A stretch of 33,473 nucleotides of DNA, the filler included, from an uncultured virus (IMG/VR IMGVR_UViG_2049941000_000069) (lineage: Duplodnaviria; Heunggongvirae; Uroviricota; Caudoviricetes). It is 7 parts of one record of this genome, joined end to end, with 100 filler letters (N's around TTAATTAATTAA, not from the genome) between each part and the next. Parts side by side here need not be neighbours in the genome. Positions count along the whole stretch, not along the records: positions 1 to 1,354 come from IMGVR_UViG_2049941000_000069; 6 more parts are not named here. One strand, given 5' to 3'. Below the pieces are notes generated by a model, which made no database searches, was not told where the DNA came from, and worked only from the letters and a program-made list of their open reading frames with translations. The position numbers and the translations under genes were made by a program. Positions 1 through 33,280 of this stretch are shown piece after piece (within the stretch, counting starts at the first letter, position 1; the number at the start of each line of letters is the position of its first letter).

Positions 1-314
1 GTTCGTCACCATACTTCTAAGCGTCTCGTTCTCTTTCTTGGTCTTCAGCAACTCCTTGACTGTCTCTCCTTGCTCTTTCCACACGATTGCTGCAGTCAAG
101 AAATTGCGAATCGTCTCGGCGTCGACAGCCCCGAGCTCTTCGAGACCGACGTGGTACATAAAGCCTTCGAGCAGTGCGGCTTTGCCGTAGTACATGTACT
201 CTTCTNNNNNNNNNNNNNNNNNNNNNNNNNNNNNNNNNNNNNNNNNNNNNNNNNTCCGAACTTCAGCACATAGCCGTTCGGCACTGGATATACATTGATT
301 TCTTTCTTTTCCAT
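1..314 (-). CDS. Hypothetical phage protein, spans an N gap and runs off the window edge
   Basis: Starts MEKKEINVYPVPNGYVLKFG. After the gap an open frame reads EEYMYYGKAALLEGFMYHVGLEELG...RSMVTN to base 1; the ORF-track frame after the gap is likely wrong. Confidence 0.7.
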
Positions 315-332
315 ATTGTTCCGTTTATGATA

Positions 333-467
333 TTAATACTCTATTTTGTCCAAGAACTCGTCGTCATCGTCGTCCTCGTTGCACAAGTCGCAGATGAAGT
401 GGTGGAACTTGTCACACCACCTGCATCCGTCGTCGTTTCTGTAGTGTTCACACTTGAAGTCTATCAT
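333..467 (-). CDS. Small Cys/His-rich acidic protein (44 aa)
   Basis: Manual translation MIDFKCEHYRNDDGCRWCDKFHHFICDLCNEDDDDDEFLDKIEY*, with CxxC motifs; fills the space between neighbouring genes. Confidence 0.6.
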   Translation of the reverse strand: MIDFKCEHYRNDDGCRWCDKFHHFICDLCNEDDDDDEFLDKIEY

Positions 468-482
468 ACCAAAGAATCTTTG

Positions 483-748
483 TCATTCTGCAGCATCGTT
501 CAGATAAGACACCAAGTCGTCACAGTCAAGATAGTCGATTAGCCCGTCGATTGAGACGTATGCGCTGTCCAGATTATCAACAGCTTGCTCTGTCATCTCA
601 TAGCGTTCAGAGCCCTGCAAGTTCTCTGGCATGTTGTCGAGCTTGTCCTGCTCTGCATCTCTCAGCTCGTCAATCTCGTCTCTGTACAACTCAAGCTTCT
701 CTCTTGCGTCAGCGATGACGTTCTCGATACCATNNNNNNNNNNCTCAT
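483..748 (-). CDS. Acidic coiled-coil phage hypothetical protein
   Basis: The frame extends upstream of 689 (GIENVIADAREKLELYRDEIDELRDAEQDKLDNMPENLQGSER) into the 10-N gap. An ATG at 748 overlaps the upstream stop (ATGA). Confidence 0.7.
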
Positions 749-921
749 CGTCTACGAACTCTAATCTTGAAGGTGGCTCCGTTGTTTGCAGGTGGTCGTC
801 CTTCTATACGTGGATAGCGCGCAGTGTCAGGCCTCGACACCCTCGTAGCGTCGTTCTTGTGCTTGAGTTCAACGTATTTCTTAATCCTTATCTTCCCTCT
901 CCTACGCTTTTTCCTTGCCAT
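745..921 (-). CDS. Small highly basic protein (58 aa)
   Basis: Manual translation MARKKRRRGKIRIKKYVELKHKNDATRVSRPDTARYPRIEGRPPANNGATFKIRVRRR*; overlaps both neighbours in a coupled fashion. Confidence 0.55.
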   Translation of the reverse strand: MARKKRRRGKIRIKKYVELKHKNDATRVSRPDTARYPRIEGRPPANNGATFKIRVRRR

Positions 922-1021
922 AGATGATGTTCAAAACTTTACTGTACTGTTCTCTTGTTATTGTTGCTCGTCCGTGCTCTTTTCCTGCGATGTACACGAA
1001 CCCAATCTTGTCTTCGTTCAT
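902..1021 (-). CDS. Small hypothetical protein (39 aa)
   Basis: MNEDKIGFVYIAGKEHGRATITREQYSKVLNIIYGKEKA*; the ATG directly follows the tRNA-like element. Confidence 0.5.
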   Translation of the reverse strand: MNEDKIGFVYIAGKEHGRATITREQYSKVLNIIYGKEKA

Positions 1022-1023
1022 AG

Positions 1024-1102
1024 AAGGGATGACGTGACTTGAACACGCGACCACCACAGAAGACTGCGTTCTGTGCGCTCTGACCAACTGAGCTACATCC
1101 CC
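1024..1102 (-). tRNA. tRNA-like gene with expanded anticodon arm (identity undetermined)
   Basis: GGGGATG TA GCTC AGTTGGTCA GAGC G CACAG AACGCAGTCTT CTGTG GTGGTC GCGTG TTCAAGT CACGT CATCCCT T. Acceptor, D and T arms are canonical; the anticodon loop is 11 nt; no encoded CCA. Confidence 0.8.
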
Positions 1103-1109
1103 ATAAAAA

Positions 1110-1199
1110 TAGGCTACCGACCCTCTCGGGCACTCACCTAAAAAAGTATCAATCTAAAACACTTATCATTATGAAAAACAATATTAACATGAACCTTTG
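1110..1199 (-). ncRNA. Candidate antisense sRNA (U-rich seed plus GNRA-capped hairpin) between two tRNA-like genes
   Basis: The minus strand reads TTTTTCATAATGATAAGTGTTTTAGATTGATACT, then hairpin TAGGT-GAGTG-CCC GAGA GGG-TCGGTA-GCCTA and a T-run. The seed is complementary to early-gene start regions. Confidence 0.5.
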
Positions 1200-1269
1200 T
1201 TGCGGCTGCAGTAGTCGAAACTGCGGAGTCTTGCTTATGAGACAAGATTGAATACCGATTCTCACCGCG
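1200..1269 (-). tRNA. Atypical tRNA with CAT anticodon (Met-like), shortened D arm
   Basis: CGCGGTG A GAAT CGGT ATTC AA TCTTGT CTCATAA GCAAGA CTCC GCAGT TTCGACT ACTGC AGCCGCA A. Canonical anticodon loop and T arm; C1:A72 mismatch. Confidence 0.7.
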
Positions 1270-1278
1270 ATTTTAAAA

Positions 1279-1310
1279 CAGCCTACCGACTTGTCGCAAG
1301 CACTCAGCTG
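1279..1310 (-). ncRNA. Second copy of the conserved internal-loop hairpin preceding a tRNA-like gene
   Basis: CAGCT-GAGTG-CTTGCGACAAG-TCGGTA-GGCTG then TTTT. Same internal loop as 1110-1140 with compensatory stem changes. Confidence 0.6.
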
Positions 1311-1398
1311 AAAGAGATTACAGTTTTATTCTAATCGACTTTTTATAGATATTTNNNNNNNNNNNNNNNNNNNNNNNNNNNNNNNNNNNNNNNNNNNN

Positions 1399-1988: not shown

Positions 1989-2354
1989 TTAAAGTGAATC
2001 AAATTCTTGTTCCATGTAGTTGTTGTCTCTGTCCATCCAACCATGAGTGAACATGATTGTCATGTTGTAGTCGCATACCTTGTCAGCCTCAATCTTCGCA
2101 ATAACGAGAGGATAACCAAGACCTTTGCAGCGTTCGATGCAGCGTGCTTTGTTTCCGCTCTCAGTGCCCATCTCACGAATTGCAATGTAGTAAGGTTCTT
2201 TGATACCAGTCCATGACTTGTCGTGAAGGTCTGACAATGAGTGAATCATATCAGAAGTAACGAGTCTGTAACCGCACACCGCAGACACTCCGAGAGCTGC
2301 CTGCATAAGAATCTCGCTGATTTGCGAGAAGTGAATCTGATTGTAAGTTTTCAT
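1989..2354 (-). CDS. Hypothetical protein (121 aa)
   Basis: Has its own ATG (MKTYNQIHFSQ) with an A-rich leader directly after a TAG at 2356-2358. The fusion to the recombinase in the ORF track is a gap artefact. Confidence 0.75.
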   Translation of the reverse strand: MKTYNQIHFSQISEILMQAALGVSAVCGYRLVTSDMIHSLSDLHDKSWTGIKEPYYIAIREMGTESGNKARCIERCKGLGYPLVIAKIEADKVCDYNMTIMFTHGWMDRDNNYMEQEFDSL

Positions 2355-2355
2355 A

Positions 2356-3305
2356 CTATACGTTTTTAAATTCGTTTGGTGTAAACTCGTCGTCATCGGT
2401 GTCTCGTTCGCTGATGCAGATTTGCTCGTAGCCTTTAATGAAGTCATCGAGAGTAACCGAATCGTCGTTGATTGCTCGCTCNNNNNNNNNNTCTTCTTGA
2501 ACTGCTGCAGGTGGGCACGCAGACGACGGGCAAGCAATGGGCTGTCAAATTGCCACTTAGAAAAGACACTGTTGTCGATGTCGTGGAAATCTTTCATGAC
2601 TTCGACAAGTTTCTCGAGCTTGCCGCAACGAAGTCGCAAGCCTAATTTCCACTCCCACTTCGTGAAGTCTTCGTCCTCGCAGTACTCTGGAAACGCTTTC
2701 TTCAGCGCCTTCAAGAACATCTGCGCTTCCTTCGACTCCATGTGCCTCTTGTTTTTCATTTTCCCTCTTTCCATATTCTCTTTATCTATAAGTTCTTTAC
2801 TCTTCTTTGATTTGTTGTATTTGTAGATGTCAGACGCAGCGCCCATCTTAATGCCCTGTTTCTTCTTCACTTCAAGCGCAGAGCGTGTTCGGCTGCTTAT
2901 AAGCTCTTTCTCCAACTGAGCGGCGAACGAGAAGTTCTGAAGAATAAGCTCGTCCAACGCAGTGATGTGGTCGCACCGCAAGTCTAATCCCATGCTTACC
3001 ACAACAAGACGAATCTTGCGTGGCTTAAGCTCCTCGTTGATAAGCTTGCTGAGGTCAAACATCGAACGTCCGAGACGCGAAATCTCTGATACGATGAGCA
3101 TGTCGCCAGCAATCATAATCGGAAGCAGCTCCTTGCCGAGCTTGCGTTCCTTGTACGACACACCGCCACTGATTCCCTCGTCGCTCACAACGTCTGTGAC
3201 TGACATATTGTTTCTGCCAAGCCACTCGTACACAGTCCTCTCCTGTTGAGCGAGGGACTGCTGGTCTGTACTGACGCGGCTGTAAAGATAAACCCTATTG
3301 TTCAT
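2356..3305 (-). CDS. Serine recombinase (resolvase/invertase family) with extended C-terminus
   Basis: YLYSRVSTDQQ catalytic Ser motif, DEGISG, GDMLIVSEISRLGRS, AQLEKELISSRTRSAL...GIKMG. The C-terminal end is uncertain because of the N gap at 2482-2491; an acidic frame ends at TAG 2356. Confidence 0.9.
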
Positions 3306-3307
3306 AC

Positions 3308-3556
3308 TCAGTCCTCAACAAGATAACCGTTCTCCACATACCACTTGACGTAGTTGTCAATCTCGCTCTCCCTGTCGGCTGATATTCTGACTCCGACCAA
3401 GCAGCTGTCCTTGAAATAGGACATAGCGTAGAGTGTTGACTGACCATAGATGTCATACTCGGTCGCACAGACGATATGGCTTATGTCTCTGCTGATGGAG
3501 TCGTCAGACAATCCGTTCTTGCGACCTTTCTCTGTAATGATAAATCTCTTTTCCAT
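3308..3556 (-). CDS. Hypothetical protein (82 aa)
   Basis: ATG at 3556 (MEKRFIITEKG) lies downstream of a promoter; the ORF-track TTG start lies inside the promoter. Confidence 0.8.
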   Translation of the reverse strand: MEKRFIITEKGRKNGLSDDSISRDISHIVCATEYDIYGQSTLYAMSYFKDSCLVGVRISADRESEIDNYVKWYVENGYLVED

Positions 3557-3580
3557 AATCCAATGTTTTAAATTGCGTTG

Positions 3581-3612: not shown

Positions 3613-3719
3613 AGTTCTTNNNNNNNNNNNNNNNNNNNNNNNNNNNNNNNNNNNNNNNNNNNNTTAATTAATTAANNNNNNNNNNNNNNNNNNNNNNNNN
3701 NNNNNNNNNNNNNNNNNNN

Positions 3720-4559: not shown

Positions 4560-4673
4560 GTCCGTCGGGTATCTCACGACAGCTGGCGGACTAACAATAG
4601 TATCAATCTAAAACATACGCAAATAAGTGGCTGCGACCACATCAAAAGTGCGGGCTCGAAGACCATCGCAGCC
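4560..4673 (-). ncRNA. Candidate structured RNA carrying a second copy of the antisense seed
   Basis: Multi-stem GGCTGCGAT...GTCGCAGCC, then TGTTTTAGATTGATACT (17/17 identical to 1145-1161), then a GTGA-capped hairpin closed by GTCCG/CGGAC. Confidence 0.5.
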
Positions 4674-4701
4674 GAACCGTGTAGATAGTGAACGTCTATC
4701 C
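4674..4701. repeat. 28-bp direct repeat, copy 1 (GAACCGTGTAGATAGTGAACGTCTATCC)
   Basis: Identical to 7567-7594; contains the inverted repeat GATAG-7nt-CTATC. Confidence 0.9.
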
Positions 4702-4968: not shown

Positions 4969-5109
4969 AGTTTATAAATCGTATGTTTCCTGTAACCAAT
5001 TAGTAATCTNNNNNNNNNNNNNNNNNNNNNNNNNNNNNNNNNNNNNNNNNNNNTTAATTAATTAANNNNNNNNNNNNNNNNNNNNNNNNNNNNNNNNNNN
5101 NNNNNNNNN

Positions 5110-5297
5110 AAACATTCAAGCGTGCTCTCGTCAGGCTCATCCTCGCTTACCATAAGCCGACCATAGTCCGTGTGCTTGCTGCGCACGTCTGTATAGTCGA
5201 AATACTCGTTTGGATGCTTGTCTGCATACTCCATGATATCCATCGTGCCGACTGCGTATGAGTCGAGCACAATCTCCTTGCATCTGATTCGTTCCAT
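5110..5297 (-). CDS. Acidic hypothetical protein, 3'-truncated
   Basis: ORF MERIRCKEIVLDSYAVG... Confidence 0.7.
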
Positions 5298-5370
5298 AAT
5301 TTTGTCGATTGATGTCTGTCAGCGTGGCGGGCGTGTCGATTAGTGTCTGCGCCCACCTTTNNNNNNNNNN

Positions 5371-6892
5371 TCTTTGATGTCTCCACAGTGTCCTTGTTCA
5401 AGTTCATGCGCAGGAGGACGTTGCCACCCATGTAGAACAACTCATCGTCTTTGTCGTAGATGTCGTACAAGCCTTGCAGATGCTTGCGCCACAAGTCACG
5501 CTTTCCTTCGATACCACGAGACAGACACTCATCTATCTGCTCCTGCTTGACCTGCTCCATGTACTCGCGCTCCTTGCGCTCCTCTTCCTCTCTGCGGATG
5601 CGCTCAATCTCCTGAGCACGTTTGCGAGCTTCTTTGTCCGCATAGTGTTTGTTCTGTCTTGCGATGAACTCGTTGCACAAGGTCTTTTCCTCTTCCGTCA
5701 ATAGCTCGGCAACATATCCGATGTATATATCATCGTCATACTTGCTCGCTTTCTCCTTGAGCAATCCGTGCTCCTTCAGAAGCGTGATTGCCCTGCGGTT
5801 GTCCTGCACTTCCTTGCACATTGCGTAGAAGTCTGCAATCCACTGCTCCTTGTCCTCGCTCTTGCGGAATGAATCGTAGTCGAAGGATGTTCTTGTGTCG
5901 CACCAGTAGAACCCACTTATATACTCTCCGCTGCACTCGTAGACCTTTCCTGTGTCCTTGTTGACGCAGTTGTTGTGGACGTCTTTCTCGTAGCCACTCC
6001 ACCCCTTCTTCGGCTCGAATCCTACAATCCACTTGTAAGCATTGCGGAAGTTCTTATCGTACTTCTTCTTGCGCTCGCCCTCGTGCTCCTTGTGCTCCTT
6101 GTATGCAAGTGCCTTGAAATGCAACTCTACACGCTCCTTTGCACTCAACTTACGAATCTGGTCGGCTGTAAGACCTGTGCCCATACGTCCACGACTCCAA
6201 CTTTCATAAGGACTTGCAATACCAAGACGCTCACACAATACCTCGACCTTTGCACGCCTGTCAGCAGCCTTGCGGAATCGTGCACAGTAGTCCCAATATG
6301 TCTTGTATGTGCTTTCTCCGAAGAGTGCATCTGTCAGCACTTCAACGTTGCGCTCGCCAGCCTTCAGCAACTTGACAAGTTTCTTGTAGTCCTTGTTCTT
6401 AGTCCACTTGAGGTACTTTGCGATGCTTGTGTCCTTGTACAGGCTGCACAATTCTTCGATGTAACCCCATGCAGAGAAGTCCACGTTCTCCAATCCCTTC
6501 TTCTTGCCGTCCTTGATGGCTGCAAGAGAGTTGTATATATTGGTAACGTAGTAGTCTATGAGGATGCAGCGATGCTTGAACGTAAACTCACGCTCCCATC
6601 CCATAAGGTCGCATCCGTCATAGGAATACCAACCGCCACGATTGTCGTTGTATGGGAATACGTGTACATCGTCAGGAAAACACCACTTTCCCAACTTGTG
6701 CTTGCTGCTTGACGGACTTGTGCTGCCCTCAAAGACGATGCACACGTTCTTTTCAACGTCTGCCCACTGCCCGAAGACAGTGTTGTACGAATAATAGTTT
6801 CTACCCTCGTAACGTACATTTCCTGAGCTGATACGTCCGTTCTTGCCTGCCTGCTTGTTCGCAAATCTGTGCTGAATGTCTCTGTAATTCAT
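5371..6892 (-). CDS. Large phage protein of unknown function (>500 aa), 3' end lost in an N gap
   Basis: Long open frame with a charged coiled-coil segment, ending GGNVLLRMNLNKDTVETSK at the gap; the ORF-track sequence after the gap is unreliable. Confidence 0.85.
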
Positions 6893-6929
6893 AATGCTAA
6901 ATGTTTTAATTGTTAATACTATTTGTTAA

Positions 6930-7421
6930 TTAAAGATACTTTTGGTCGATGTCGTACTCGCTCACCTCGTCCTCATATTTTACTTCTCCGAGGCAGTCGT
7001 ACTTATGTCTTGTCTCAATTACATGCCACTTTCCAGTAGGTTCGTAGTCTTCCTCCACCTTCTCAAATCGTTTCTTTGTGGATATGTATGTACGATTATC
7101 TACTTTCTCTTCATTGCCACAACCGCACAATGTAATCGGGTTGCCAAGATAGTTATAGTTGCCTCCTTCGATATGCTTTGGCTGTAGGTTGTAGTGCTCC
7201 TGCAAATACGGAAGAACCAACTCAATCATCGTGCGCACGTCAATGCCAAGATTTACACGAACAGGGATGTCGTTCCGATGCCACTTGAAATCCTCTCCCT
7301 TGAAATCTGGCGTACTATAATCCTTGCGGTGAATATATGCCTGCCCGACAAAGTGACAAACTTCGNNNNNNNNNNACCACGTGCCCGCACCGCTACCAAA
7401 ATACAAACTATAATACTCCAT
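6930..7421 (-). CDS. Hypothetical protein (spans a 10-N gap; may be two genes)
   Basis: Open frame with a strong A-rich leader. Confidence 0.7.
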   Translation of the reverse strand: MEYYSLYFGSGAGTWXXXXEVCHFVGQAYIHRKDYSTPDFKGEDFKWHRNDIPVRVNLGIDVRTMIELVLPYLQEHYNLQPKHIEGGNYNYLGNPITLCGCGNEEKVDNRTYISTKKRFEKVEEDYEPTGKWHVIETRHKYDCLGEVKYEDEVSEYDIDQKYL

Positions 7422-7566
7422 TGCTTTTGATGTTTTAAATTAATACTTATTTGAATAGCTTTTGCAAACTACATTTGTGTAGCTTGTAAGCGTGTATGTG
7501 CGTACACTTGTGCCGCGCTTTTCCACAAACGTCTGACGTGTCGCAAAGCGTCGCGTCGTTGTGGAT

Positions 7567-7594
7567 GAACCGTGTAGATAGTGAACGTCTATCC
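7567..7594. repeat. 28-bp direct repeat, copy 2
   Basis: Identical to 4674-4701; abuts an assembly gap and a long hairpin (TCCACAA...TTGTGGA). Confidence 0.9.
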
Positions 7595-7604
7595 NNNNNN
7601 NNNN

Positions 7605-7844
7605 TTAAAAGAACCTTGCCAATACTTGTCCTTTTCTAAGACACACGATGCCGCTTACCTTGAAGCATCGCATAATGTCTGCGAACTCTTCGTTTTGGTA
7701 GAATGCCATGCCGTCGTTTTCGTCCGTCGGCTTAATCCACACGTTACTTCCATCCGACTCTGCCACCGTTCTTGTCGCAGCCGTGCTGCCTGCAAAGTTG
7801 TCGTTCCAGTGCTTTGCAATCTTTGTTGCTAAACTCTTTTCCAT
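7605..7844 (-). CDS. Hypothetical protein (79 aa)
   Basis: Complete ORF with an A-rich leader. Confidence 0.8.
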   Translation of the reverse strand: MEKSLATKIAKHWNDNFAGSTAATRTVAESDGSNVWIKPTDENDGMAFYQNEEFADIMRCFKVSGIVCLRKGQVLARFF

Positions 7845-7848
7845 AATG

Positions 7849-7947
7849 CTACTTGTTTTTTAATTGATACTCTGTTTTTGCGTCGCTATATATGCATGCA
7901 CCGCCTGCGACCATGACGATGCCCACGATGATAGATAATGTAATCAT
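7849..7947 (-). CDS. Small membrane peptide (32 aa)
   Basis: MITLSIIVGIVMVAGGACIYSDAKTEYQLKNK*; ATGA overlap with the upstream stop; hydrophobic N-terminus. Confidence 0.55.
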   Translation of the reverse strand: MITLSIIVGIVMVAGGACIYSDAKTEYQLKNK

Positions 7948-8627: not shown

Positions 8628-9038
8628 NNNNNNNNNNNNNNNNNNNNNNNNNNNNNNNNNNNNNNNNNNNNTTAATTAATTAANNNNNNNNNNNNNNNNN
8701 NNNNNNNNNNNNNNNNNNNNNNNNNNNTATACAATATATTAAGTACTCCAAGAAAACAAGAAAACGGGAAAACTGATAAAAAGCCGAAATGCGGATAATG
8801 ATAATAAATGAACATATAAAAAACGTATTTTTTACCCTGAAAATGTGGTGGACAAAATAGGGACTAAAAAGGTACGAAAACAGACGAAAACAAATAGACG
8901 GGGCGGGAGGTGTGGGCAAAGCGAAATGATATGGTGCAAACAGTCCTTTTCTTAAAAAGAAAAAAATCGAAAAAAAAAAAATAAAAATTCCAGAGTGTGT
9001 GTGATTATGTAGAATCGTCGTAGATGCCGTTTCTTTTG

Positions 9039-9680: not shown

Positions 9681-9924
9681 GGTTATGCCGAGTGATGAAT
9701 TTAGAGAGCGCGTCGTGTGCGCATTAGAGTCGGTTGCTCACAGCTTGTTTATTGTGTGNNNNNNNNNNNNNNNNNNNNNNNNNNNNNNNNNNNNNNNNNN
9801 NNNNNNNNNNNNNNNNNNNNNNNNNNNNNNNNNNNNNNNNNNNNNNNNNNNNNNNNNNNNNNNNNNNNNNNNNNNNNNNNNNNNNNNNNNNNNNNNNNNN
9901 NNNNNNNNNNNNNNNNNNNNNNNN

Positions 9925-11359: not shown

Positions 11360-12106
11360 CCACAACGGAAATCATTTTTGTTCTACAAGGACTGGTACGA
11401 AGCAATATCGTCTCTCGATGCAGACGTCAGACTTGAGGTCTATGACGCCATTATGTCAAGGGTATGGAGAAGTGATAGCTGTACATTGTCTCCTATGGCA
11501 GAGCTTTCCATGCGCTTCATCTCGCCGCAGATTGACCGAGATGAAGCCAAGTATCGCGAAATATCAGACAAACGTTCAGAAGCAGGAAAAAAGCATCGTG
11601 GCAACCAATATTCTTTTTTGGAACAAATGGAACAAGACGGAACAAATGGAACAAGTGTTCCAAATTTGGAACAAAATGGAACAAATGGAACAGATGATGA
11701 TAATGATAATGATAATGTAGAGAATAATATTGTTCTCTATGAAGAAAGAAAAGATACTGACGTATCTGTTATAAAGAAAGAAAAACGGTTCGTAAAGCCA
11801 ACAGTTGATGAAATACGAGACTATATACAAGAGAAAGGCTATACGTTTGATGCTGAGGCCTTCTTTGCGTATTATGAGAGCAACGGGTGGAAGGTTGGTC
11901 GCAATCCGATGAAGAATTGGAGAATGGCCTGCACGACATGGTCTAAAAACAGAAACAATAATAATGGCAACAACTATGGAAGAGAGACAATCACCGACAA
12001 GATTAGGCGCACTGTTGAAGGCGCAAACGAGTTCAAGCAGCGAATTGACGCGAACATCGGAAGAGAAGCCGACATGGGTGACGGAGATTCTGACAAGGTA
12101 TGGTAG
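11357..12106 (+). CDS. Phage replication initiator-like protein (DUF6291-like N-terminus)
   Basis: RKSFLFYKDWYEAI N-terminus, KRSEAGKK, a low-complexity iteron-encoded linker, and C-terminal FVKPTVDEI...FFAYYESNGWKVGRNPMKNW. Confidence 0.8.
   Translation: MPQRKSFLFYKDWYEAISSLDADVRLEVYDAIMSRVWRSDSCTLSPMAELSMRFISPQIDRDEAKYREISDKRSEAGKKHRGNQYSFLEQMEQDGTNGTSVPNLEQNGTNGTDDDNDNDNVENNIVLYEERKDTDVSVIKKEKRFVKPTVDEIRDYIQEKGYTFDAEAFFAYYESNGWKVGRNPMKNWRMACTTWSKNRNNNNGNNYGRETITDKIRRTVEGANEFKQRIDANIGREADMGDGDSDKVW
11619..11730 (+). repeat. Iteron-like GGAACA repeats plus AT-rich tract (candidate origin)
   Basis: Seven direct GGAACA copies and one inverted copy; 18-bp palindrome TGTTCCAAATTTGGAACA at 11656-11673; followed by (GAT/AAT)n. 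Confidence 0.65.
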
Positions 12107-15000: not shown

Positions 15001-18000
15001 TTAACTCATAAGTTCTACGCGTATCCCCTGACCGCTCGGCACAGTCCAGTTCTCCATCATCGACTGCATCGACATCATGACTGTATAGTTTGTCTGCATC
15101 TGAAGTAGGAGCTGGGACATCGTTGCGACTTGCACGTCCAAGTCAAATCCGACGACCGCGTCGCGTATCTGTGTAAGCAAATCCGATTGCAGGTACACTT
15201 GCTGGCTGACTCCGTTCATATAGCCTTCCAACGCGCCTGCCGTGTCTTCGGTAATCCCCTGAATCCCCTGCTGTAGCGCCGACAGGTTCTGCTCGCTAGA
15301 TTCACCAAACTTGTAATACTCGCCAAGAATATTCTTTAGCCTTTCGCCAAGTTCTGGCATAATGTTTGTAATCTCCTCCATCACGTAGTCGATGTCGGAG
15401 TCGGTAAACGCTGATGCTGCGTCAAGACGTTTCTGTGCCGCTTTTTCTTCTTCTTCTGCAGCTTTTCTGTAAGCGTCTATTTCGTCATGTCTCTCAGATG
15501 TTAATGAGGCGACTTCTGACAAGAAATCGTTATAATTCCCAATTCCGCGCCCATATCGTTCAGTAGCCATTTGGATTGCAACCTCTTCGTCAGACATCTG
15601 TCGTATTTCGAGGTTTCTGTTCCTTGCTTTTGCCAATGCGTCTGCTTCATCTTTCGTCCTGTCGTTGATACGGGCATCCAAATCATCCCACAACGCATCC
15701 ATGTATTGCGATACGACGCGGCTCACGATAGACTTCATAATCATGTTGTCTATCATTTCGTCAAACTTGTCAGAGAACACCTTCATGTAGTCCTCACCTT
15801 GCTTGAACGCACTTATCATCGAAGACACAAGGTTCTCTGCAAAGCTCGCAACGTCGGTTCCCATAAGGTCGTCAATAATCTCTGTGTAGCCGTTCTGTAT
15901 CTCGTAGTACAGTTCTCTGTACTGCTTCTGCAAGTCGAGTATCTTGTCTTCGTCGCGGTTCTTTGCTTTGCGCGACTTCTCAAGCTGTATCTGTCGCTGT
16001 ATTTCTGCAAGCTGAAGTTCTTTATTTGCCAACGCTGCTTGTCTTGCTCCGATGACTGCGGTGCCATAAGCCCTGTCGATGGCTTGCTCCAAGTCGATAA
16101 ACGACATTTCAAGATGCTTGACTGCGTGTTCAGACTCTTGCACGCTTGCCGTTATTCCAGCATTACCGCTCCATTCGTCAGCAAATTCGCTTATTACTCC
16201 AGCTGCAGCACCTACGACAGCACCGATGATAGCTCCATAAGTACCAAAAGAAGCGCCTGCCTGTGCTCCTGTGCCAGCCTTATCGATGATTCCAAAGATT
16301 TTATCGACATCGCTGTTGCCTTTTACGCCGCCGATTGCCTTTGCCAAATCGTCGAAAAGACCAATCGCACCCTTGATAGCTCCGTATACGGACATAAGCG
16401 ATTCAACCCATTCGCCAGCAGATATTTCGCCTGTCTTGGAGAGTTGCACCAAACGTTCTTTTAACTCGTCAAGTTCTTTAATTTGCTCTTCGGTAGCTTC
16501 TCCAGTGCCGATTTCACTTTCAATTGCATCTATCTTTGATGCTATAGAAGCCATCTCTGGCAAAACATCAGCCATACGTTCCTTTGCCTTGTCGAGCATA
16601 TTGGCAATAGCACCGAAAGGATTGTTCTTGCGCTGCTCTTTATATAAATTCTTTAGTGCATTGTTTATGTTCTTAATCTGCTTCGGGTCAAGATTCTTGG
16701 AATTCTTCTTATATTCCTCAAGTCTCTTGATAAGTCCGCCAATAGCCTTGTCTGTCATTCCAGCCAAGTCACCAGTCGCGATAACCCATTCGGGCGACTT
16801 CTGGAACTCTTCAAACGCTGTCTTTGCACTTTCCTGAGCTTCTTTCGTGTCGATGGCGACTTTTAGCTGAATCTTGACCTTGTCGTCAGCCACCACTTGG
16901 TCTACAAGAGCCTTCAGTTGTTTCTTGAGCTCTTCGGCTTTTTGTGTGTCGTCTTCGACTTCGAGTTGTGCGTATATTTTTCTAGCACTTTCCTTTTGCT
17001 CTTCTGTGCCAAATTTCACCACAAGCGCCTTTCGCTCGTTGTCAGCTTCTTTTGCAATCTGAGTGAGCTTGTACTGATACTCAGAGTACTTCTGAAGAAG
17101 CTTCTCGTACTCCTTTACAGCGTCAGCAGCTTCTTTCTTGCGAGTTTCTTGCGTAGCTTCATATCCCTTCTGAATCATGTCGTAGTAAGGCTGCTGAAGC
17201 GTTCCTGCGTTCAATTGTTCAGTGAACGCCTCCATGTCGTCACGAGTCAGATTCAGCATGTTAGGAAGCTCGATGTTGGCGCCCATCTGCTTGAAGTACT
17301 TGTTCAGAGACTTCGTGTACACCTCTGCGTACTCTTTTGCAGTACGTGGCAGTGTGTCCAAGTCGATGTCGAACATGTCGGCGAACATATTGCCGAGCTC
17401 TGGATTGGCGTCAAGCTCCACAGCCAACTCGTATTCGTCCTTCAGACGTCCGAGCTCGTTGTCGAGACCCTTCTTTATCTTCGTTGCGTTATAAGACTTT
17501 GCGTCAACGTCAACATTGTCATACTTTATTCTTAACTCACTTATTTCCTCTGGCTTGACGTTTTTTGAAAGTTTTGCAGCGCTTATCTGCTCTTGCAGCA
17601 TTTCGAGAAGCTTGTTCGGGTCGTCAGTTCCAGCAAACTTACGTATGTCGAACTTCGGTATGTTGTTCTTTCCAAGAATCTTGTTGATATACTCTATTGA
17701 TTCGCCGAAGCGTGATGTGAGATATGAAAGCGCTGTCGTTCTGTTGATTCCAGAGTCAGTCATCTTCTTGTATGCAGACGATACTTCGTCTATAATCTTC
17801 AGTTCTTCCTTGAGAGCCTTTTGAAGCTCCGATTCTGCGGCTTTCTGAGCTTTGGTATTTGCAGTGTTTTCTTTCTTCGATTCTCCGCCTTCAGAAACGG
17901 CTTTATTGTAGTCTTTTTCAGCTGCAGCTCGTTCTTTTAGTGCCTTGGTAAGTTTTTGGTCGTCTTCTGAAGCAGTTATGTTGTTTTCGTCAACTTCTTT

Positions 18001-21000
18001 TGCTCCCTTTTTCCTTAATCTCGCAATCTCCTTGTCAAGGCGCTGCATATCTTTCCAAGCTTTGTCTGCTGCCGCATCAGCCTCTTCAAGTGTTTTCATG
18101 ACAGTCTTGTTTTCGTCTGTGCTTATCGTAAGAGGTATAAAGATGCTCCACTGGTTTGCGTTTGCAACCCAATTTTTCAGGTAGTTAAACGCTTCATCGT
18201 ACGACATCTTGTGGCTCTTCGCATAGTTAGTAACCATGCGTTTTACCCAATCCGCGTATTTGCCTTCTTGGAAGTTTAGCGACTTAATCTGTTTATCGTT
18301 CATACCTCTGAACATAGCAGTCATTTCAGACAGATGTTGCTCCTTGAGATATTTGGTAAATCGCTCCCACTCGACTTTTTGGCGACCGTTATAAAGATTC
18401 CAGTTGTTATATATCTCTGCCTCCTTCTCGTATTCTTTAGCTATCTCTTCTTTATGAAGACTGTCTTTTTCAGCCATATATGCATTTCTAAGGTCTTGCA
18501 GCCTTATATATTGAGCTTCTTTTGCAGCCTTCGAACGTGCTTCTTCCATCTCAATTTGAAGCATATACGCTTTTTCAGGGTCAAGTTGGTTCTGTTGTAT
18601 GAGATTGTCGGTAATCTGCTTGAACGTTTCATTAACCTTGTTTACGTTTCCACTCCACCCTTGCGCGTTTATAAAGTTTAGAACAGACTCTTTTGTTGAA
18701 TCAATGTCTTCTCTGAACTTTTTAAGTTCATTTTCGTAATTGTCAAGCCATCGCTCAGCGTCGTCTTGGTATTTCTTGTCTATACCCAATGGAGCTCTGT
18801 CTTCTCCAGAAGCAGCTCTCCTCGCTTTTTCGATTGAACCATATTTCTCTTCAATCTTTCCAAGCCACATGTGGGTGTCTTTGAGATTCCCTATCGTACC
18901 GTCTGGAAGAGTCCATAAGTTCCACCAAGCAGACCAGTCTCTTTCTAATTTTATTGCACCATCTCCAAGCTCCTTTATCGCAGCAGAAACAGACTGAATA
19001 TCGTCAATAACAGCAAAACTTTGCCTTAGCCTTTCACTGACATTTTTTATCTGCAAAAGACCTCCGATATATTTGTCGCTTGCGTGCGAAGAAAGCTCTA
19101 TTTGTTCTTTTACTGCTTCCCATGCTTTCTTTGCGTCGTCAACGTTAATGTCTTGAGGCGTTACAATGGTTTTTCCGTTGTTGTCTGTTATCGTCTTATA
19201 AAGGCTTTCTCGGAGCTCCTTGTACTGTTCCTTGAATTTCTCCAAGTCGTTGTAAGTGTTTTTGGCGTTTTCTCTTATTGTTCTATTGAACTCCTTCATG
19301 GCTTCGTTTCCACGAACAATTTCAACGACAGCAGCTGCTGCCATAGTTGCTATGCCAACCCATAGTGTAGAAGAAGCCATTTTTGCAGCATTCATTGAAG
19401 ATGTTAATGCACGCAATTTTTGAGACAATTTGTCACCAAGAACAGCTTCCAACGCAATAGCTTTATTTGTACCCATTACAACTCCATAATACAGAAGTTG
19501 AGCAGTCTTGACCAATCCCAATCCTATCGCAAGATTTTCAACAGCTTTACTAAGGTTCTTCCATTGTAAAAAGAATTCTTTGAGAAGATTGATGCCAGTA
19601 GTAAGAACACCCTGCTCAGACTTTCCAATGTCGTTAAGCATATTGTTCCATGCAAGCGTCAGGTTGGCAAGGCGTACTTTCAGGGTATCAGCCATCTTTG
19701 CTTGGAAATCAAAGAACTTACCGCCTTCGTCGGTCATCTTTGTTACAACAGACATGACATCGTTGTAGTCGATGGCTTTCTTCTTCATTCTGTCATATAC
19801 ATCACCGACGCTTACCATCTTCCCTTCAAGCTCAGTGTAGTACTTTGACAGCTCTCGGACGAGAGGAATACCAGCGTTGGCAAACATACGTGCATCACGG
19901 CTGTTTAGATAGCCGTAGGCTTTAATCTGACCAAGTGCGTATGTCAGACGTTCCATCGGGACACCAACAGCAGAAGCCATGTCTGCAAGACGGCGTGTTG
20001 TGTCTACCACTTCGTTTGCTGCAATGTCGTATGCAGTCAGTTGCTTTGCTGCGTTTGACAGTTCTATCAAGGTGTATGGAGAAACGAGAGCCATCTGAGA
20101 CAGCTCGTTGAATATCTGAGTTCCTCTCTCTGCGGAGTTGATGAGAATACCAAGCGCACGCTCGTTCATCTCGTATTGTGAGCGGACTTCTATAAGGTTC
20201 TTAATAAACTGAGTCGATGCACCTACTGTAAAGTAGAATGCAAGACGGTTCTTCATGTAGTTCCATGAACGACCGAGGGCGTTGTTTGAACCGACCATCT
20301 GCTGGTTCTTGTTCATCACCTCATCCATCTTTTTCTTCAGGCGCTCGTACTCTGCGTTGACTTGATTGATTTCATTCCGCTGAGCATTGACATCAAGCCC
20401 GGAACGATACGACGCAAGTCTCTGCATCTTATACGCGATGTCGTCAAGAGTCTTTTCGGAAAGACCGCCTCTTCCATTGATTCCAAGAATAGATTCAAGG
20501 GATACTGGGCGCGATGCTTGTAAACGTATTTTCTGTATCGCGCGCTCAACTTCTTGTATTGACGCAACAAGAGCTTTTCCTTGGTCGCTGTCTCTCTCTG
20601 ACGAGCTTAATCTGTCGTATGTCTGCTTTAACTGCCTTAGAGTTTTGTCTAAGTTGTTGTATGATGCAGTTTCAGAGTCAGCAAGTTTCACTTGTGACTG
20701 CTGCAAGCCTAATACATGAGCTATTGATTGCCTTAAATCGTCGTATGAGGCAAACGTCTTTGGCTGAGAGCGTTTTGCTTGTTCGTTTGTAATCTGAGTC
20801 TCAGTAGCCAATTGACGTTGTGCAGCCTGCTCAGCAGCAGCCTTTTCAGAAGCCTCTTGCCTCTCTGCACTTGCACGTCGTATTGCTTCAACTTCTTGTT
20901 CTTTCTGTGTGTTTAAAATCTGCTCTTCAAGAGAAAGTCTGTCTTTTGCTGGTAATGTGCTTCTTTCAGAGTCGTAATAAACTCTGTCTCCAACCATTGC

Positions 21001-21942
21001 GTAGCCTTTCTCTTTCCATTCTACGCTCTCTCTGATTGCTTGCGCTTGCCTGCGAACTTCTTCTGTATATTTCTGAGAACCTTGTGTTAGTTGTTGCTGC
21101 TCATGAACGCTGCTGCTTAGGATTTGCTGCAGCCTTCTGATTTCTGCTTCGGTAGATGCAATTTGAGAAGGATTCAGCAGTCCGCGTTCGCGCATATCAC
21201 GGAGCAATGCTTGCAATCGTTCAAGCTTGGCTTGGACAAGGTCGTATTGGTCTGTAGGAATTTTGTTTGCCCTCGAATAAGCAAGTCTATATTGCTCGTC
21301 TATCATTTTCTTCTGAGCAGCAGTTTCTTTTTCTTGAGCAGCGACACGTCTTTCTGATGCTCTTTTTGAAAGTTTCTCTTCTTCTGCATAATATTGATTG
21401 AGCTGTTTTAGCCTCTCGTCAACAGCAAAGAAATTCTTAACATCAGCTTTTGCATTATACGAATATGCTTTTTCGTTTGCTGTAGCCAATCCCAATGCAG
21501 AAACCCTCAGCTTTTCGTTATACTCGACGATACGAGCCAATGCGCGCTCATACTCGGCATAGTCTTGCTTTGATGGGTCGATGTGCTGCCTTAGCGTGTT
21601 GAAATTCGAAATTACACCCACTGCTTGTTTCAAGCCCTGAGCAAGTTGGTCAAAAGTCATGCTCTGCTCTTTTGCGGATTGCGTCGTCTTCTTTGTCTGT
21701 TCTTCAAGTGATTTCTGGTCGTTGACAACCTTTTTTGTCCCTCCACCTGACGACGTGCCGCCGAAGTCAATCTTGACGTTGCCAAGCTCGCCAAGCTTCT
21801 TTTTCATCTGCTCGACAGCAGAGTCCATAGACTGAGCCATCTTCTTTGTCGCTTCGTCTACGTGTTGGACGAGCTTGTCTATCGAGTTCTTTAAGTCTTG
21901 GTCGCTCAACGAGGCAGCGACTATCGTCGGTGAATTTGCCAT
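15001..21942 (-). CDS. Tail tape measure protein (2313 aa)
   Basis: Very long helical ORF after the chaperones. Tape-measure motif SPYTLIELSNAAKQL...RLADMASAVGVPMERLTYALGQI, hydrophobic segments, and C-terminal QGITEDTAGALEG. Confidence 0.95.
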   Translation of the reverse strand: MANSPTIVAASLSDQDLKNSIDKLVQHVDEATKKMAQSMDSAVEQMKKKLGELGNVKIDFGGTSSGGGTKKVVNDQKSLEEQTKKTTQSAKEQSMTFDQLAQGLKQAVGVISNFNTLRQHIDPSKQDYAEYERALARIVEYNEKLRVSALGLATANEKAYSYNAKADVKNFFAVDERLKQLNQYYAEEEKLSKRASERRVAAQEKETAAQKKMIDEQYRLAYSRANKIPTDQYDLVQAKLERLQALLRDMRERGLLNPSQIASTEAEIRRLQQILSSSVHEQQQLTQGSQKYTEEVRRQAQAIRESVEWKEKGYAMVGDRVYYDSERSTLPAKDRLSLEEQILNTQKEQEVEAIRRASAERQEASEKAAAEQAAQRQLATETQITNEQAKRSQPKTFASYDDLRQSIAHVLGLQQSQVKLADSETASYNNLDKTLRQLKQTYDRLSSSERDSDQGKALVASIQEVERAIQKIRLQASRPVSLESILGINGRGGLSEKTLDDIAYKMQRLASYRSGLDVNAQRNEINQVNAEYERLKKKMDEVMNKNQQMVGSNNALGRSWNYMKNRLAFYFTVGASTQFIKNLIEVRSQYEMNERALGILINSAERGTQIFNELSQMALVSPYTLIELSNAAKQLTAYDIAANEVVDTTRRLADMASAVGVPMERLTYALGQIKAYGYLNSRDARMFANAGIPLVRELSKYYTELEGKMVSVGDVYDRMKKKAIDYNDVMSVVTKMTDEGGKFFDFQAKMADTLKVRLANLTLAWNNMLNDIGKSEQGVLTTGINLLKEFFLQWKNLSKAVENLAIGLGLVKTAQLLYYGVVMGTNKAIALEAVLGDKLSQKLRALTSSMNAAKMASSTLWVGIATMAAAAVVEIVRGNEAMKEFNRTIRENAKNTYNDLEKFKEQYKELRESLYKTITDNNGKTIVTPQDINVDDAKKAWEAVKEQIELSSHASDKYIGGLLQIKNVSERLRQSFAVIDDIQSVSAAIKELGDGAIKLERDWSAWWNLWTLPDGTIGNLKDTHMWLGKIEEKYGSIEKARRAASGEDRAPLGIDKKYQDDAERWLDNYENELKKFREDIDSTKESVLNFINAQGWSGNVNKVNETFKQITDNLIQQNQLDPEKAYMLQIEMEEARSKAAKEAQYIRLQDLRNAYMAEKDSLHKEEIAKEYEKEAEIYNNWNLYNGRQKVEWERFTKYLKEQHLSEMTAMFRGMNDKQIKSLNFQEGKYADWVKRMVTNYAKSHKMSYDEAFNYLKNWVANANQWSIFIPLTISTDENKTVMKTLEEADAAADKAWKDMQRLDKEIARLRKKGAKEVDENNITASEDDQKLTKALKERAAAEKDYNKAVSEGGESKKENTANTKAQKAAESELQKALKEELKIIDEVSSAYKKMTDSGINRTTALSYLTSRFGESIEYINKILGKNNIPKFDIRKFAGTDDPNKLLEMLQEQISAAKLSKNVKPEEISELRIKYDNVDVDAKSYNATKIKKGLDNELGRLKDEYELAVELDANPELGNMFADMFDIDLDTLPRTAKEYAEVYTKSLNKYFKQMGANIELPNMLNLTRDDMEAFTEQLNAGTLQQPYYDMIQKGYEATQETRKKEAADAVKEYEKLLQKYSEYQYKLTQIAKEADNERKALVVKFGTEEQKESARKIYAQLEVEDDTQKAEELKKQLKALVDQVVADDKVKIQLKVAIDTKEAQESAKTAFEEFQKSPEWVIATGDLAGMTDKAIGGLIKRLEEYKKNSKNLDPKQIKNINNALKNLYKEQRKNNPFGAIANMLDKAKERMADVLPEMASIASKIDAIESEIGTGEATEEQIKELDELKERLVQLSKTGEISAGEWVESLMSVYGAIKGAIGLFDDLAKAIGGVKGNSDVDKIFGIIDKAGTGAQAGASFGTYGAIIGAVVGAAAGVISEFADEWSGNAGITASVQESEHAVKHLEMSFIDLEQAIDRAYGTAVIGARQAALANKELQLAEIQRQIQLEKSRKAKNRDEDKILDLQKQYRELYYEIQNGYTEIIDDLMGTDVASFAENLVSSMISAFKQGEDYMKVFSDKFDEMIDNMIMKSIVSRVVSQYMDALWDDLDARINDRTKDEADALAKARNRNLEIRQMSDEEVAIQMATERYGRGIGNYNDFLSEVASLTSERHDEIDAYRKAAEEEEKAAQKRLDAASAFTDSDIDYVMEEITNIMPELGERLKNILGEYYKFGESSEQNLSALQQGIQGITEDTAGALEGYMNGVSQQVYLQSDLLTQIRDAVVGFDLDVQVATMSQLLLQMQTNYTVMMSMQSMMENWTVPSGQGIRVELMS

Positions 21943-25413: not shown

Positions 25414-26697
25414 TTACGCGTCAGCCTGTGTCGTGTCAACGCAGACGTGATACATCGACTCGTCGAGCACGGTGGCGTAACGACCGATGACGTCCGTATG
25501 GTATGCCTTGAGCATGCCGTTCGGAACGACCTTGTTGATGACATAGAGGAATCCCTGCGTCTTTGCCACGGAAGCCTGAATGGTGTTGTTAATCTCGCCG
25601 CTCTGGATGAGGTCGACATCAGCGGGCTTTGCATGGACGATGACACCAGCCATACCGAGAGGACGCAGAACAGCGACACCAGCCTTCCAGCCCTTGACGG
25701 TGTGGTAAGTGGTGATGCCCTGTACGGTCTGCTGCTCGCGGACGATGTGGATGGGCGCAATCTTCGAGATGGGCGAACGGCTGTACTCGACAAGCTGCTG
25801 ATAGGTGATGCTGTCGACGGTAGTGCTCGACTGACCGCTTGTGACAACGATGACCTTGTCGGGAGCATAGAGCGAGATGTAGCGGTTCACTTCCTTGATG
25901 AAAGCCGTGTTCTTCAGAAGAACGTTAATCAGCATGTCCCAAGTGATGTCCCACTGGAAGCCAACGCTGTCAGGAATCTGGTTGGCAAGACGGAAGTCAA
26001 TCTCAATCTTGCGCATCTGCTCTGGGATGTCGCAGTCAGCAGCAGTCCAAACCTTTGCGCCTGCAGTCTTGAAGTTGGCGGTAGGAATGTAAGCAGCCTG
26101 CGAAGTGACAACGCCACTGAAGCCCTGAGTCGTGGCAGTACCGCCAGCGATGTTGGTCAGAGCGATGGTGTTACCATACTGACCACCACGAGACAGTGTC
26201 ATAGCTGCCATGTTGGATGCAGTAAGCATGTGAGACTTAATCAAGTCTGCAACGCCACGAACGTATCCCTCTACGAGAGACTGGTCTTGGCCGAGTTCCT
26301 CAAGACGAGCCTGAAGCTCCATCTTGGACATCGAAGTCTCGAACAAGCCCTTACCATACTGGTAGATAGAGCCAGTCTTAACATCGTAGCCCTCAGCGTC
26401 GAGCTGCATGGTCTCAGACAGAGGAGCCATTGCGTCGGCCATAGGAACGGTACGCTGAATCTTCTGACGTACAGACCAAGCTGGGTTCTGCTTCAGCTGA
26501 CCGCGCTCAATCTGATACTCCATGCCCTCGACACGGAAGCACTCCTGCCAGAAGAACTGATTCTCATCAAGTTCGATGGTGCGGTCGATGAGGGTCTGCA
26601 AGAAACCCTGATTGCTGCCGCCACCTAAGAAACCTCTCTGATAAAGCTTCTCGATAGCCTCATCGGAAGTCCACTGAAATTTTAGTGCATTTGCCAT
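25414..26697 (-). CDS. Major capsid protein
   Basis: 427 aa with strong codon bias, in the order scaffold-decoration-capsid; KVWTAADCDIPEQM resembles lambda gpE-type capsids. Confidence 0.85.
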   Translation of the reverse strand: MANALKFQWTSDEAIEKLYQRGFLGGGSNQGFLQTLIDRTIELDENQFFWQECFRVEGMEYQIERGQLKQNPAWSVRQKIQRTVPMADAMAPLSETMQLDAEGYDVKTGSIYQYGKGLFETSMSKMELQARLEELGQDQSLVEGYVRGVADLIKSHMLTASNMAAMTLSRGGQYGNTIALTNIAGGTATTQGFSGVVTSQAAYIPTANFKTAGAKVWTAADCDIPEQMRKIEIDFRLANQIPDSVGFQWDITWDMLINVLLKNTAFIKEVNRYISLYAPDKVIVVTSGQSSTTVDSITYQQLVEYSRSPISKIAPIHIVREQQTVQGITTYHTVKGWKAGVAVLRPLGMAGVIVHAKPADVDLIQSGEINNTIQASVAKTQGFLYVINKVVPNGMLKAYHTDVIGRYATVLDESMYHVCVDTTQADA

Positions 26698-32367: not shown

Positions 32368-32467
32368 NNNNNNNNNNNNNNNNNNNNNNNNNNNNNNNNN
32401 NNNNNNNNNNNTTAATTAATTAANNNNNNNNNNNNNNNNNNNNNNNNNNNNNNNNNNNNNNNNNNNN

Positions 32468-33180: not shown

Positions 33181-33280
33181 NNNNNNNNNNNNNNNNNNNN
33201 NNNNNNNNNNNNNNNNNNNNNNNNTTAATTAATTAANNNNNNNNNNNNNNNNNNNNNNNNNNNNNNNNNNNNNNNNNNNN

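Follow-up and report, generated by a model that had tools for sequence, protein, structure and literature searches.

A conserved phage cassette of hairpins and tRNA-like elements carries a block antisense to gene-start regions

Post-transcriptional control in Bacteroidota and their phages has, to our knowledge, been little explored, and translation in these hosts starts without Shine-Dalgarno pairing. In mitochondrial tRNA punctuation, tRNA-shaped elements separate the RNAs of a precursor, and an open reading frame (ORF) directly after a tRNA 3′ end is translated from a leaderless mRNA. The tRNA-miRNA-encoding RNAs (TMERs) of murine gammaherpesvirus 68 reportedly link a non-decoding tRNA-like element to regulatory hairpin RNAs released by tRNase Z, and RegA of phage T4 is said to shut off many early mRNAs together via AU-rich start-codon sequences. 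The c4 RNA serves immunity in a temperate phage and acts on one operon. The c4 RNA of phages P1 and P7 is a phage antisense RNA that occludes a translation start, its precursor is a substrate of RNase P, and the enzyme acts directly on this precursor and not on a separate flanking tRNA (PMC11143913). The 3′ external transcribed spacer of glyW-cysT-leuZ in Escherichia coli (3′ETS-leuZ) is cut out of a tRNA precursor and acts by base pairing, as a cellular RNA that sponges the small RNAs (sRNAs) RyhB and RybB; the same review states that no stable internal spacer RNA had been reported (PMC8166272). Here we analysed a stretch of 33,473 bases (the window) from an uncultured virus of the Caudoviricetes (IMG/VR IMGVR_UViG_2049941000_000069), whose minus strand carries at 1310-1023 a cassette of two hairpins and two tRNA-like elements around a spacer that is antisense to gene-start regions.

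The feature is real, conserved and non-coding, and by analogy it may work like c4 of P1 and tRNA-spacer RNAs of the 3′ETS-leuZ type. As in the latter, the block lies in the spacer of a predicted tRNA-like precursor; in contrast to 3′ETS-leuZ, it is an internal spacer between tRNA-like elements, phage-encoded and complementary to mRNA start regions. Unlike c4, the cassette has separate tRNA-shaped elements flanking the seed, and its predicted targets are a dozen genes with one consensus; a c4-type maturation by RNase P is suggested by these flanking elements. The TMERs are eukaryotic polymerase III products that yield microRNAs and show no sequence relation to the cassette, the RegA repressor is a protein whereas the candidate here is an RNA, and mitochondrial punctuation is organellar whereas processing of the cassette is a prediction. 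The cassette matches no curated RNA family: comparison with Rfam, as the initial annotation of the window had proposed, returned no antisense or sRNA family, the whole window at E≤1 giving only tRNA and positions 1000-1354 at E≤10 giving only tRNA and a chance-level SCARNA7 match (10.4 bits vs. a cut-off of 65). No paper on such a cassette was found in the open-access literature searched.

The layout read by the initial annotation along minus strand 1310-1023 (hairpin, tRNA-Met-like element with CAU, spacer, hairpin, tRNA-like element) was recovered with ARAGORN and folding, and an ORF of 39 amino acids (aa) directly follows the second tRNA-like element. In cassette order, and with TIR denoting a translation initiation region, the features are:

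1279..1310 (-), hairpin 1: outer stem; conserved internal loop, asymmetric (5′ UGAGUG / 3′ UCGGUAG); inner stem CUUG/CAAG, then UUUU
1199..1269 (-), tRNA-Met-like element (tRNA-like 1): ARAGORN tRNA-Met(cat); loop CUCAUAA, 4-nt D loop, G7xA66 mismatch
1179..1198 (-), linker of variable sequence, separating tRNA-like 1 from the anti-TIR block: unalignable across the window and the related loci L076 and L129
1145..1178 (-), anti-TIR block (seed): reverse complement of the consensus at early-gene starts, with CAU opposite AUG
1110..1140 (-), hairpin 2: motif as in hairpin 1, inner stem CCC/GGG, loop GAGA, then UAUUUUUAU (1109-1103)
1023..1102 (-), tRNA-like 2: ARAGORN tRNA call; good acceptor, D and T arms
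902..1021 (-), conserved 39-aa ORF (MNEDKIGF...): present in 4/4 loci; no TIR motif

The spacer (1178-1145) reads UUUUUCAUAAUGAUAAGUGUUUUAGAUUGAUACU, as first quoted, and is antisense to real gene-start regions. All four start regions originally proposed as partners paired with it in RNAduplex, at −18.5 to −26.4 kcal/mol and with all three AUG bases paired in each:

6888..6920 (-), sense TIR of ORF 5147-6892, predicted target: profile E=3e-06; duplex −25.9 kcal/mol, 29 pairs (first given as 6888-6912)
7837..7874 (-), sense TIR of ORF 7605-7844, predicted target: duplex −26.4 kcal/mol, 30 pairs (first given as 7837-7871)
7416..7451 (-), sense TIR of ORF 6930-7421, predicted target: −18.5 kcal/mol at 7431-7447 and −20.6 when extended, with this seed (seed 1); −27.7 with a second seed (seed 2, described below)
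3549..3579 (-), sense TIR of ORF 3308-3556, predicted target: duplex −23.2 kcal/mol (first given as 3549-3575)

The match between block and TIR spans approximately 34 nt, including CAUNAUG and a U-run opposite the AAAA that follows AUG, and five duplexes together comprised 114 Watson-Crick and 14 G-U pairs (RNAduplex). None of the four target ORFs had a family match in scans against PHROGs and Pfam.

The predicted multi-target pairing arises because the targets share a consensus that the initial annotation had not recognised: a single motif, (A)GTATTAAC-AATTAAAACA-N7-9-ATG, recurs in all four, and the spacer carries it inverted. This consensus is used by about a dozen early genes of the phage group. 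It was traced in the relative G002, a single IMG/VR contig of 83,750 bp (loci L076 and L093-L098) with whose 27-68 kb the window is syntenic and co-oriented; there it serves about a dozen minus-strand genes of the early region, and of 13 relaxed-motif matches on the early-gene strand, 9 had an ATG within 16 nt. The window itself is a concatenate of at least seven contigs chained by N44-TTAATTAATTAA-N44 six-frame-stop linkers, plus N10 gaps, so that it does not by itself establish that cassette and targets share a strand. This relation was confirmed in G002, whose order and orientation the pieces of the window follow. The motif keeps a fixed spacing to AUG, is not dyad-symmetric, and often overlaps the stop codon of the preceding gene. 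In two cases (window 3588/3556 and the G002 ORF start at L093:8397) a TAACTTTG box, which we take to fit the Bacteroidota −7 promoter consensus TAnnTTTG, lies 5-6 nt upstream of it. Its place downstream of a −7 box puts the motif in the mRNA leader (the 5′ untranslated region, UTR), as a TIR and not a promoter.

Two further observations concern start regions in G002. Three early ORFs (L093 ~17431, 17261 and 16983, minus strand) carry a GGAGG-like sequence 7-9 nt before ATG in place of the TIR motif, so that start regions of at least two kinds are in use in this phage. A pistol ribozyme at L093:17652-17736 (minus strand; G002 39651-39735), scoring 48.8 bits in Rfam against a gathering score of 34.5, immediately precedes the TIR motif belonging to an early ORF of 61 aa, and the homologous place in the window is the break at 8628-8727.

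Duplex positions were concentrated at gene starts. For the G002 seed, 14 of the 25 best duplex loci fell on ORF starts, compared to 13.8% of all windows, whereas a control leader RNA from the same cassette placed 2/15 there. It is this location at gene starts that carries the weight of the chance test. A profile built from 17 sense start regions gave five plus-strand matches at E<10, and the three that spanned at least 25 positions were all anti-TIR sites. The leader before hairpin 1 in L076 had the look of a diverged seed and was rejected as a second one, its best duplexes being random with 2/15 at ORF starts.

Related cassettes were recovered by hairpin pattern searches, in line with the suggestion that the tRNA-seed-hairpin layout should be sought elsewhere. 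Of 63 loci matched in IMG/VR only L076 was related, of 34 in metagenomes four were (L106, L120, L129 and L133), and genome contigs gave no matches; two other metagenome matches (L112 and L132) look like eukaryotic exon-intron junctions and were discarded. Together they represent three further versions of the cassette, L076 (= L133, in G002), L106 (= L120) and L129, with the same order of parts in all. Within the anti-TIR block, 25 of 32 columns were identical in the window, L076 and L129, while the linker preceding it could not be aligned. Each tRNA-like element is preceded by a hairpin of approximately 31 nt (1310-1279 and 1140-1110 in the window). Across six instances of this hairpin, 96.5% of cells were paired and 4 of 10 pairs had changed on both sides, which none of 500 shuffles equalled; the asymmetric internal loop, 5′ YGAGWG / 3′ UYRGUAG, was common to both hairpins across versions. 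Candidate marks of a generic sRNA were also noted. L076, L106 and L129 each have, upstream and on the strand of the cassette, a promoter-like TTG-N19-TATCTTTG, presumably a host-type promoter; in the window, the contig ends 44 nt before hairpin 1. After the seed comes a hairpin with a U-run in both window copies, in L076 and in the second copy of G002; in L076 and L106, where it is a putative extra terminator immediately behind the block, and at both copy-2 loci it takes the form of hairpin plus U5. Hairpin 2 may serve to stabilise the 3′ end of the seed RNA or to terminate it.

The tRNA-shaped parts are the least constrained of the cassette. tRNA-like 1 is a member of the tRNA-Met family found in crAss-like phages (short D arm, C1xA72 acceptor end, 4-nt D loop) and is 86% identical over 51 nt to the tRNA-Met of cr85_1; compensatory changes were present in 10 of the 21 cloverleaf pairs of this family (6 sequences). 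No match of 1199-1269 to Rfam RF00005 was found even at E≤10 in the 355-nt search of 1000-1354, and another member of the family (locus L168) scored 27.7 bits, below the cut-off of 29. Bacterial initiator tRNAs are marked by a C1xA72 mismatch and by an anticodon stem with three G:C pairs in a row. The window element has the initiator-type acceptor end (C1xA72, followed by G2:C71, C3:G70 and G4:C69), and its anticodon stem, CUUGU/GCAAG, is without three consecutive G:C pairs. In L129, three loop bases of tRNA-like 1 are gone, the anticodon among them; in L076 the element is barely alignable to that of the window outside the acceptor ends, and keeps those ends and the CAU loop.

In a decoding tRNA, the anticodon stem has 5 bp and the loop 7 nt, position 33 being U and position 37 a purine. 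tRNA-like 2 departs from this, with a 7-bp ‘anticodon’ stem (CACAGAA/UUCUGUG) and a loop (CGCAGUC) that lacks U33 and has U at position 37. The term ‘degenerate tRNAs’ used in the initial annotation is only partly apt for this window. Against RF00005 (gathering score 29), tRNA-like 2 of the window reached 45.2 bits over the full model, 1-71. In L129 the same element has an 8-bp ‘anticodon’ stem and a 6-nt loop, with compensatory stem changes and no anticodon-loop features; in L076 it was not called by ARAGORN or Rfam; and the slot in L106 holds a true tRNA-Ala together with another tRNA-like element. To judge from these features, the flanking tRNA-like elements do not act as decoders in the relatives. 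The AUG of the 39-aa ORF lies 1-3 nt past the 3′ end of tRNA-like 2 in all four loci (window 1019-1024, L076, L106 and L129), two bases past it in the window, and cleavage at that end would leave a leaderless mRNA for this ORF, without a TIR motif.

A second anti-TIR unit is present at 4673-4560 on the same strand:

4629..4673 (-), copy-2 5′ structure, 45 nt: 8-9 bp stem enclosing two small hairpins
4599..4615 (-), second anti-TIR copy (seed 2): 17-mer identical to 1161-1145
4560..4591 (-), copy-2 hairpin, then AUUUUG

The 5′ structure was not reported by the tRNA searches (ARAGORN, Rfam). In the orthologous copy of G002, the unit consists of a tRNA-like element with a canonical T arm, a seed with one base of the 17-mer changed, and a different hairpin with a U-run; the window and G002 each have two inverted copies, in orthologous places. 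A search with the 17-mer gave 22 loci, of which five were relatives of copy 2, two were sense start regions and the rest were unrelated. The copy-2 element was approximately 89% identical in five IMG/VR contigs with differing flanking genes, the identity of their seeds having been selected by the search pattern. In the four genomes behind these contigs, all matches (6/6) of the strict TIR pattern lay on the strand of the seed. In the two other phage contigs, L006 (1194-1233) and L012, the exact 17-mer forms the sense start region of a gene (…ATTATGGAAAAT…), with which the anti-TIR RNA of the window would pair perfectly.

The second copy stands approximately 80 nt before a gene whose TIR is weak, which could suggest that the block acts in cis, folding onto the start region of a gene in the same transcript and gating its translation. 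We hold this to be extremely unlikely. Copy 2 pairs with its own downstream TIR at −9.0 kcal/mol, compared to −18.0 to −27.7 kcal/mol with other TIRs, which argues against a cis role, and the ORF downstream of the cassette has no TIR motif and abuts tRNA-like 2.

The conservation of the copy-2 element among differing flanking genes is also the pattern of a mosaic boundary, and would suit an element that works as DNA, i.e., a protein-binding or recombination site in either orientation (an operator or module boundary); the serine recombinase gene at 1989-3305 and an exact 28-nt repeat nearby would be in keeping with it. Such a role is nevertheless decidedly unlikely. The motif has fixed AUG spacing, a place in the 5′ UTR and no dyad symmetry; recombination between inverted and sense copies would invert essential genes; and the tRNA-like 5′ flank and the hairpin with U-run on the 3′ side are strand-specific RNA features. 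The repeat itself occurs at 4674-4701, just upstream of the copy-2 element, and at 7567-7594, contains a small hairpin (GATAG...CTATC) and stands at gene 3′ ends. Related forms occur in L010, L011, L020 and L023 with different flanking genes, and the repeat may be a mosaic boundary.

The reading that we favour, at somewhat less than an even chance, is that a minus-strand anti-TIR RNA from a tRNA-like-punctuated precursor blocks the translation of early genes. A host-type promoter would drive a transcript of hairpin 1, the tRNA-Met-like element, the linker, the anti-TIR block, hairpin 2, tRNA-like 2 and the 39-aa ORF, from which host tRNA-processing enzymes could cut out the tRNA-shaped elements. 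The remaining RNA would be approximately 85-100 nt long, with a single-stranded 5′ part antisense to the early-gene start consensus and a 3′ end formed by hairpin 2 (window, L129) or by the added terminator (L076, L106). It would pair with a dozen early mRNAs, spanning their A-rich leader and AUG, and block initiation, with the second unit at 4673-4560 contributing the same seed. Transcription of the window copy, its processing, pairing in vivo and repression are what we infer from the observed arrangement. The purpose may be early-gene shut-off or, given the serine recombinase of the phage, prophage immunity. If this holds, one phage RNA reading a shared start consensus would be a compact off-switch for a class of genes and a natural counterpart of designed antisense tools; decayed phage tRNA genes would be processing signals, which suggests why tRNA-like relics persist.

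A more far-reaching version is doubtful: the phage group may use a private translational code for its early genes, in which a start consensus of approximately 35 nt is read by two tRNA-like-anchored anti-TIR RNAs acting as master switches that silence the whole set, decayed tRNAs and the pistol ribozyme of the relative supply the punctuation, and the 39-aa ORF, being leaderless, escapes. Such switches, if real, could set timing, or confer an RNA-based immunity that also hits incoming relatives with the same start regions.

Several results weigh against the anti-TIR RNA, and some of them would fit an alternative in which the tRNA-like genes have the block as a trailer or processing element, an AU-rich single-stranded stretch for 3′ maturation or termination that came down with the tRNA-Met family. 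Its complementarity to TIRs would then be incidental, a consequence of a common AU-rich, partly palindromic composition (TTTAAA core), and no regulatory pairing would take place. The shuffle comparison gave a mixed outcome: in RNAduplex the top five loci beat 31/31 dinucleotide shuffles, but the margin at ranks 1-5 was only 2-5 kcal/mol (best locus of the shuffles: mean −21.6, best −24.5 kcal/mol), and ungapped complementarity over 34 nt was not above shuffles, 98 of 500 reaching the observed maximum. A control 39-nt leader RNA reached −25.7 kcal/mol at random sites of G002. The start-region profile matched 1144-1177 on the plus strand over nearly its whole length with a borderline E=0.079, and the inverted copies of G002 with E=2.1 and 5.3. 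A conserved seed complementary to its targets beyond chance, as expected of a trans-acting base-pairing sRNA, is thus found subject to the failed ungapped test and this borderline profile score. The seed was about as accessible as the rest of the RNA (P(unpaired) 0.41-0.59 vs. 0.39-0.55), and a simple terminator scan called neither hairpin 1 nor hairpin 2, including hairpin 2 with UAUUUUUAU. The promoter region of the window was lost at the contig end, 1354. AU-rich trailers similar to the GUUUUAGAUUGAUA core accompany members of this tRNA-Met family in crAss-like phages, and there the trailer is the sense leader of the next gene (e.g., L138). G003, a 148-kb record, has a promoter, a tRNA-Met and a similar block; at 44.2-45.2 kb (locus L168) a TATCTTTG promoter box and the tRNA-Met family member are followed ~20 nt on by TTTGTTTTAGTTTGATAAT, and no sense copy of this block was found in the record within 3 mismatches. 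Some of the block may thus have been inherited as a trailer and not selected for pairing.

As an account of the whole block, we nonetheless regard the trailer as unlikely. The match of approximately 34 nt takes in CAUNAUG and the U-run opposite the AAAA after AUG; copy 2 has a different 5′ structure, which the tRNA searches did not report, and yet an identical 17-mer; the plus-strand profile matches of at least 25 positions, among the five at E<10, were without exception anti-TIR sites; and ORF starts were enriched among the duplexes of the seed (14/25) relative to the control (2/15).

Little weight can be given to the wobble-preserving differences from perfect complementarity that the initial annotation had adduced for RNA-RNA pairing. 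Of the 34 seed bases, 21 are U or G, and the ‘C variant’ is also found as a sense start region in other phages. A G:U wobble signature, in which all four inverted copies read AATCTAAAACA against sense AATT(T)AAAACA (window, and L093 = 22-40 kb of G002), was rejected as evidence: the four copies are only two paralogues in two genomes, L129 carries A at this position, and the C form serves as a sense start region in G008 and G009.

Expression evidence came from assembled contigs. One contig of 395 nt from a metatranscriptome library covered the cassette of a relative, with the ORF, a variant tRNA-like 2 (84 bases of the window replaced by 92), hairpin 2 and 176 nt upstream. This single contig counts both for and against the anti-TIR RNA: it spans the cassette, but it shows neither strand nor ends and may stem from DNA carry-over. 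Two further library contigs carried tRNA-like 1 at approximately 97% identity, and behind it an inverted TIR-like trailer of a different sequence, a further variation on this theme. The small-share RNA runs X18 and X19 covered only tRNA-like 1, and their signal is probably DNA; stretches left uncovered carry no information.

The match of 1144-1177 on the plus strand to the TIR profile, together with an ATGAAAA conserved in three loci, could alternatively mark a plus-strand function, either a micro-ORF starting at ATG 1171 or the start of an antisense transcript running across tRNA-like 1. A genuine plus-strand start at ATG 1171, which the initial annotation had named as fatal to its proposal, was not borne out, and we consider a plus-strand function highly unlikely. 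The ORFs that would begin there in the window, L076 and L129 (26, 44 and 50 aa) are unrelated and lie in different frames relative to the conserved tRNA-like element; no TAnnTTTG −7 box was found on the plus strand upstream of it; and in copy 2 the motif is not followed by an ATG. These three points make a plus-strand gene unlikely, and all genes neighbouring the cassette, as well as the skew, are minus-strand.

The cassette lies on the first piece of the window (1-1354), with the contig end 44 nt upstream of hairpin 1. Linkers and gaps of the concatenate are located as follows:

206-254, 734-743, 1355-1454, 3620-3719, 5010-5109, 8628-8727, 9759-9924, 32368-32467, 33181-33280 and others

The segment 28287-28648 repeats 25598-25897 at 97% identity and maps inside a region of G002 that is already covered; it is probably a redundant assembly piece. 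The genes of the window are phage-like; named matches of its proteins in PHROGs and Pfam were limited to a tape-measure protein (15001-21942) and the serine recombinase (1989-3305). The DNA sequencing runs that contain the window stretch are bovine gut metagenomes; the source is a rumen phage, which probably infects Bacteroidota. A host search with a 427-aa protein found no relatives, another point against the anti-TIR reading, and an ORF-end pattern search matched only G002.

Two minor features complete the description. At 745-921 (minus strand), a very basic 58-aa ORF (MARKKRRRGKIRIKK...) overlaps the 39-aa ORF at the latter's end and is conserved in L076; it had no family match in Pfam and could be a nucleic-acid-binding partner. 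At 11617-11696, short words of the GGAACAAA type (family D5) are repeated in tandem and in both orientations, forming an iteron-like array.

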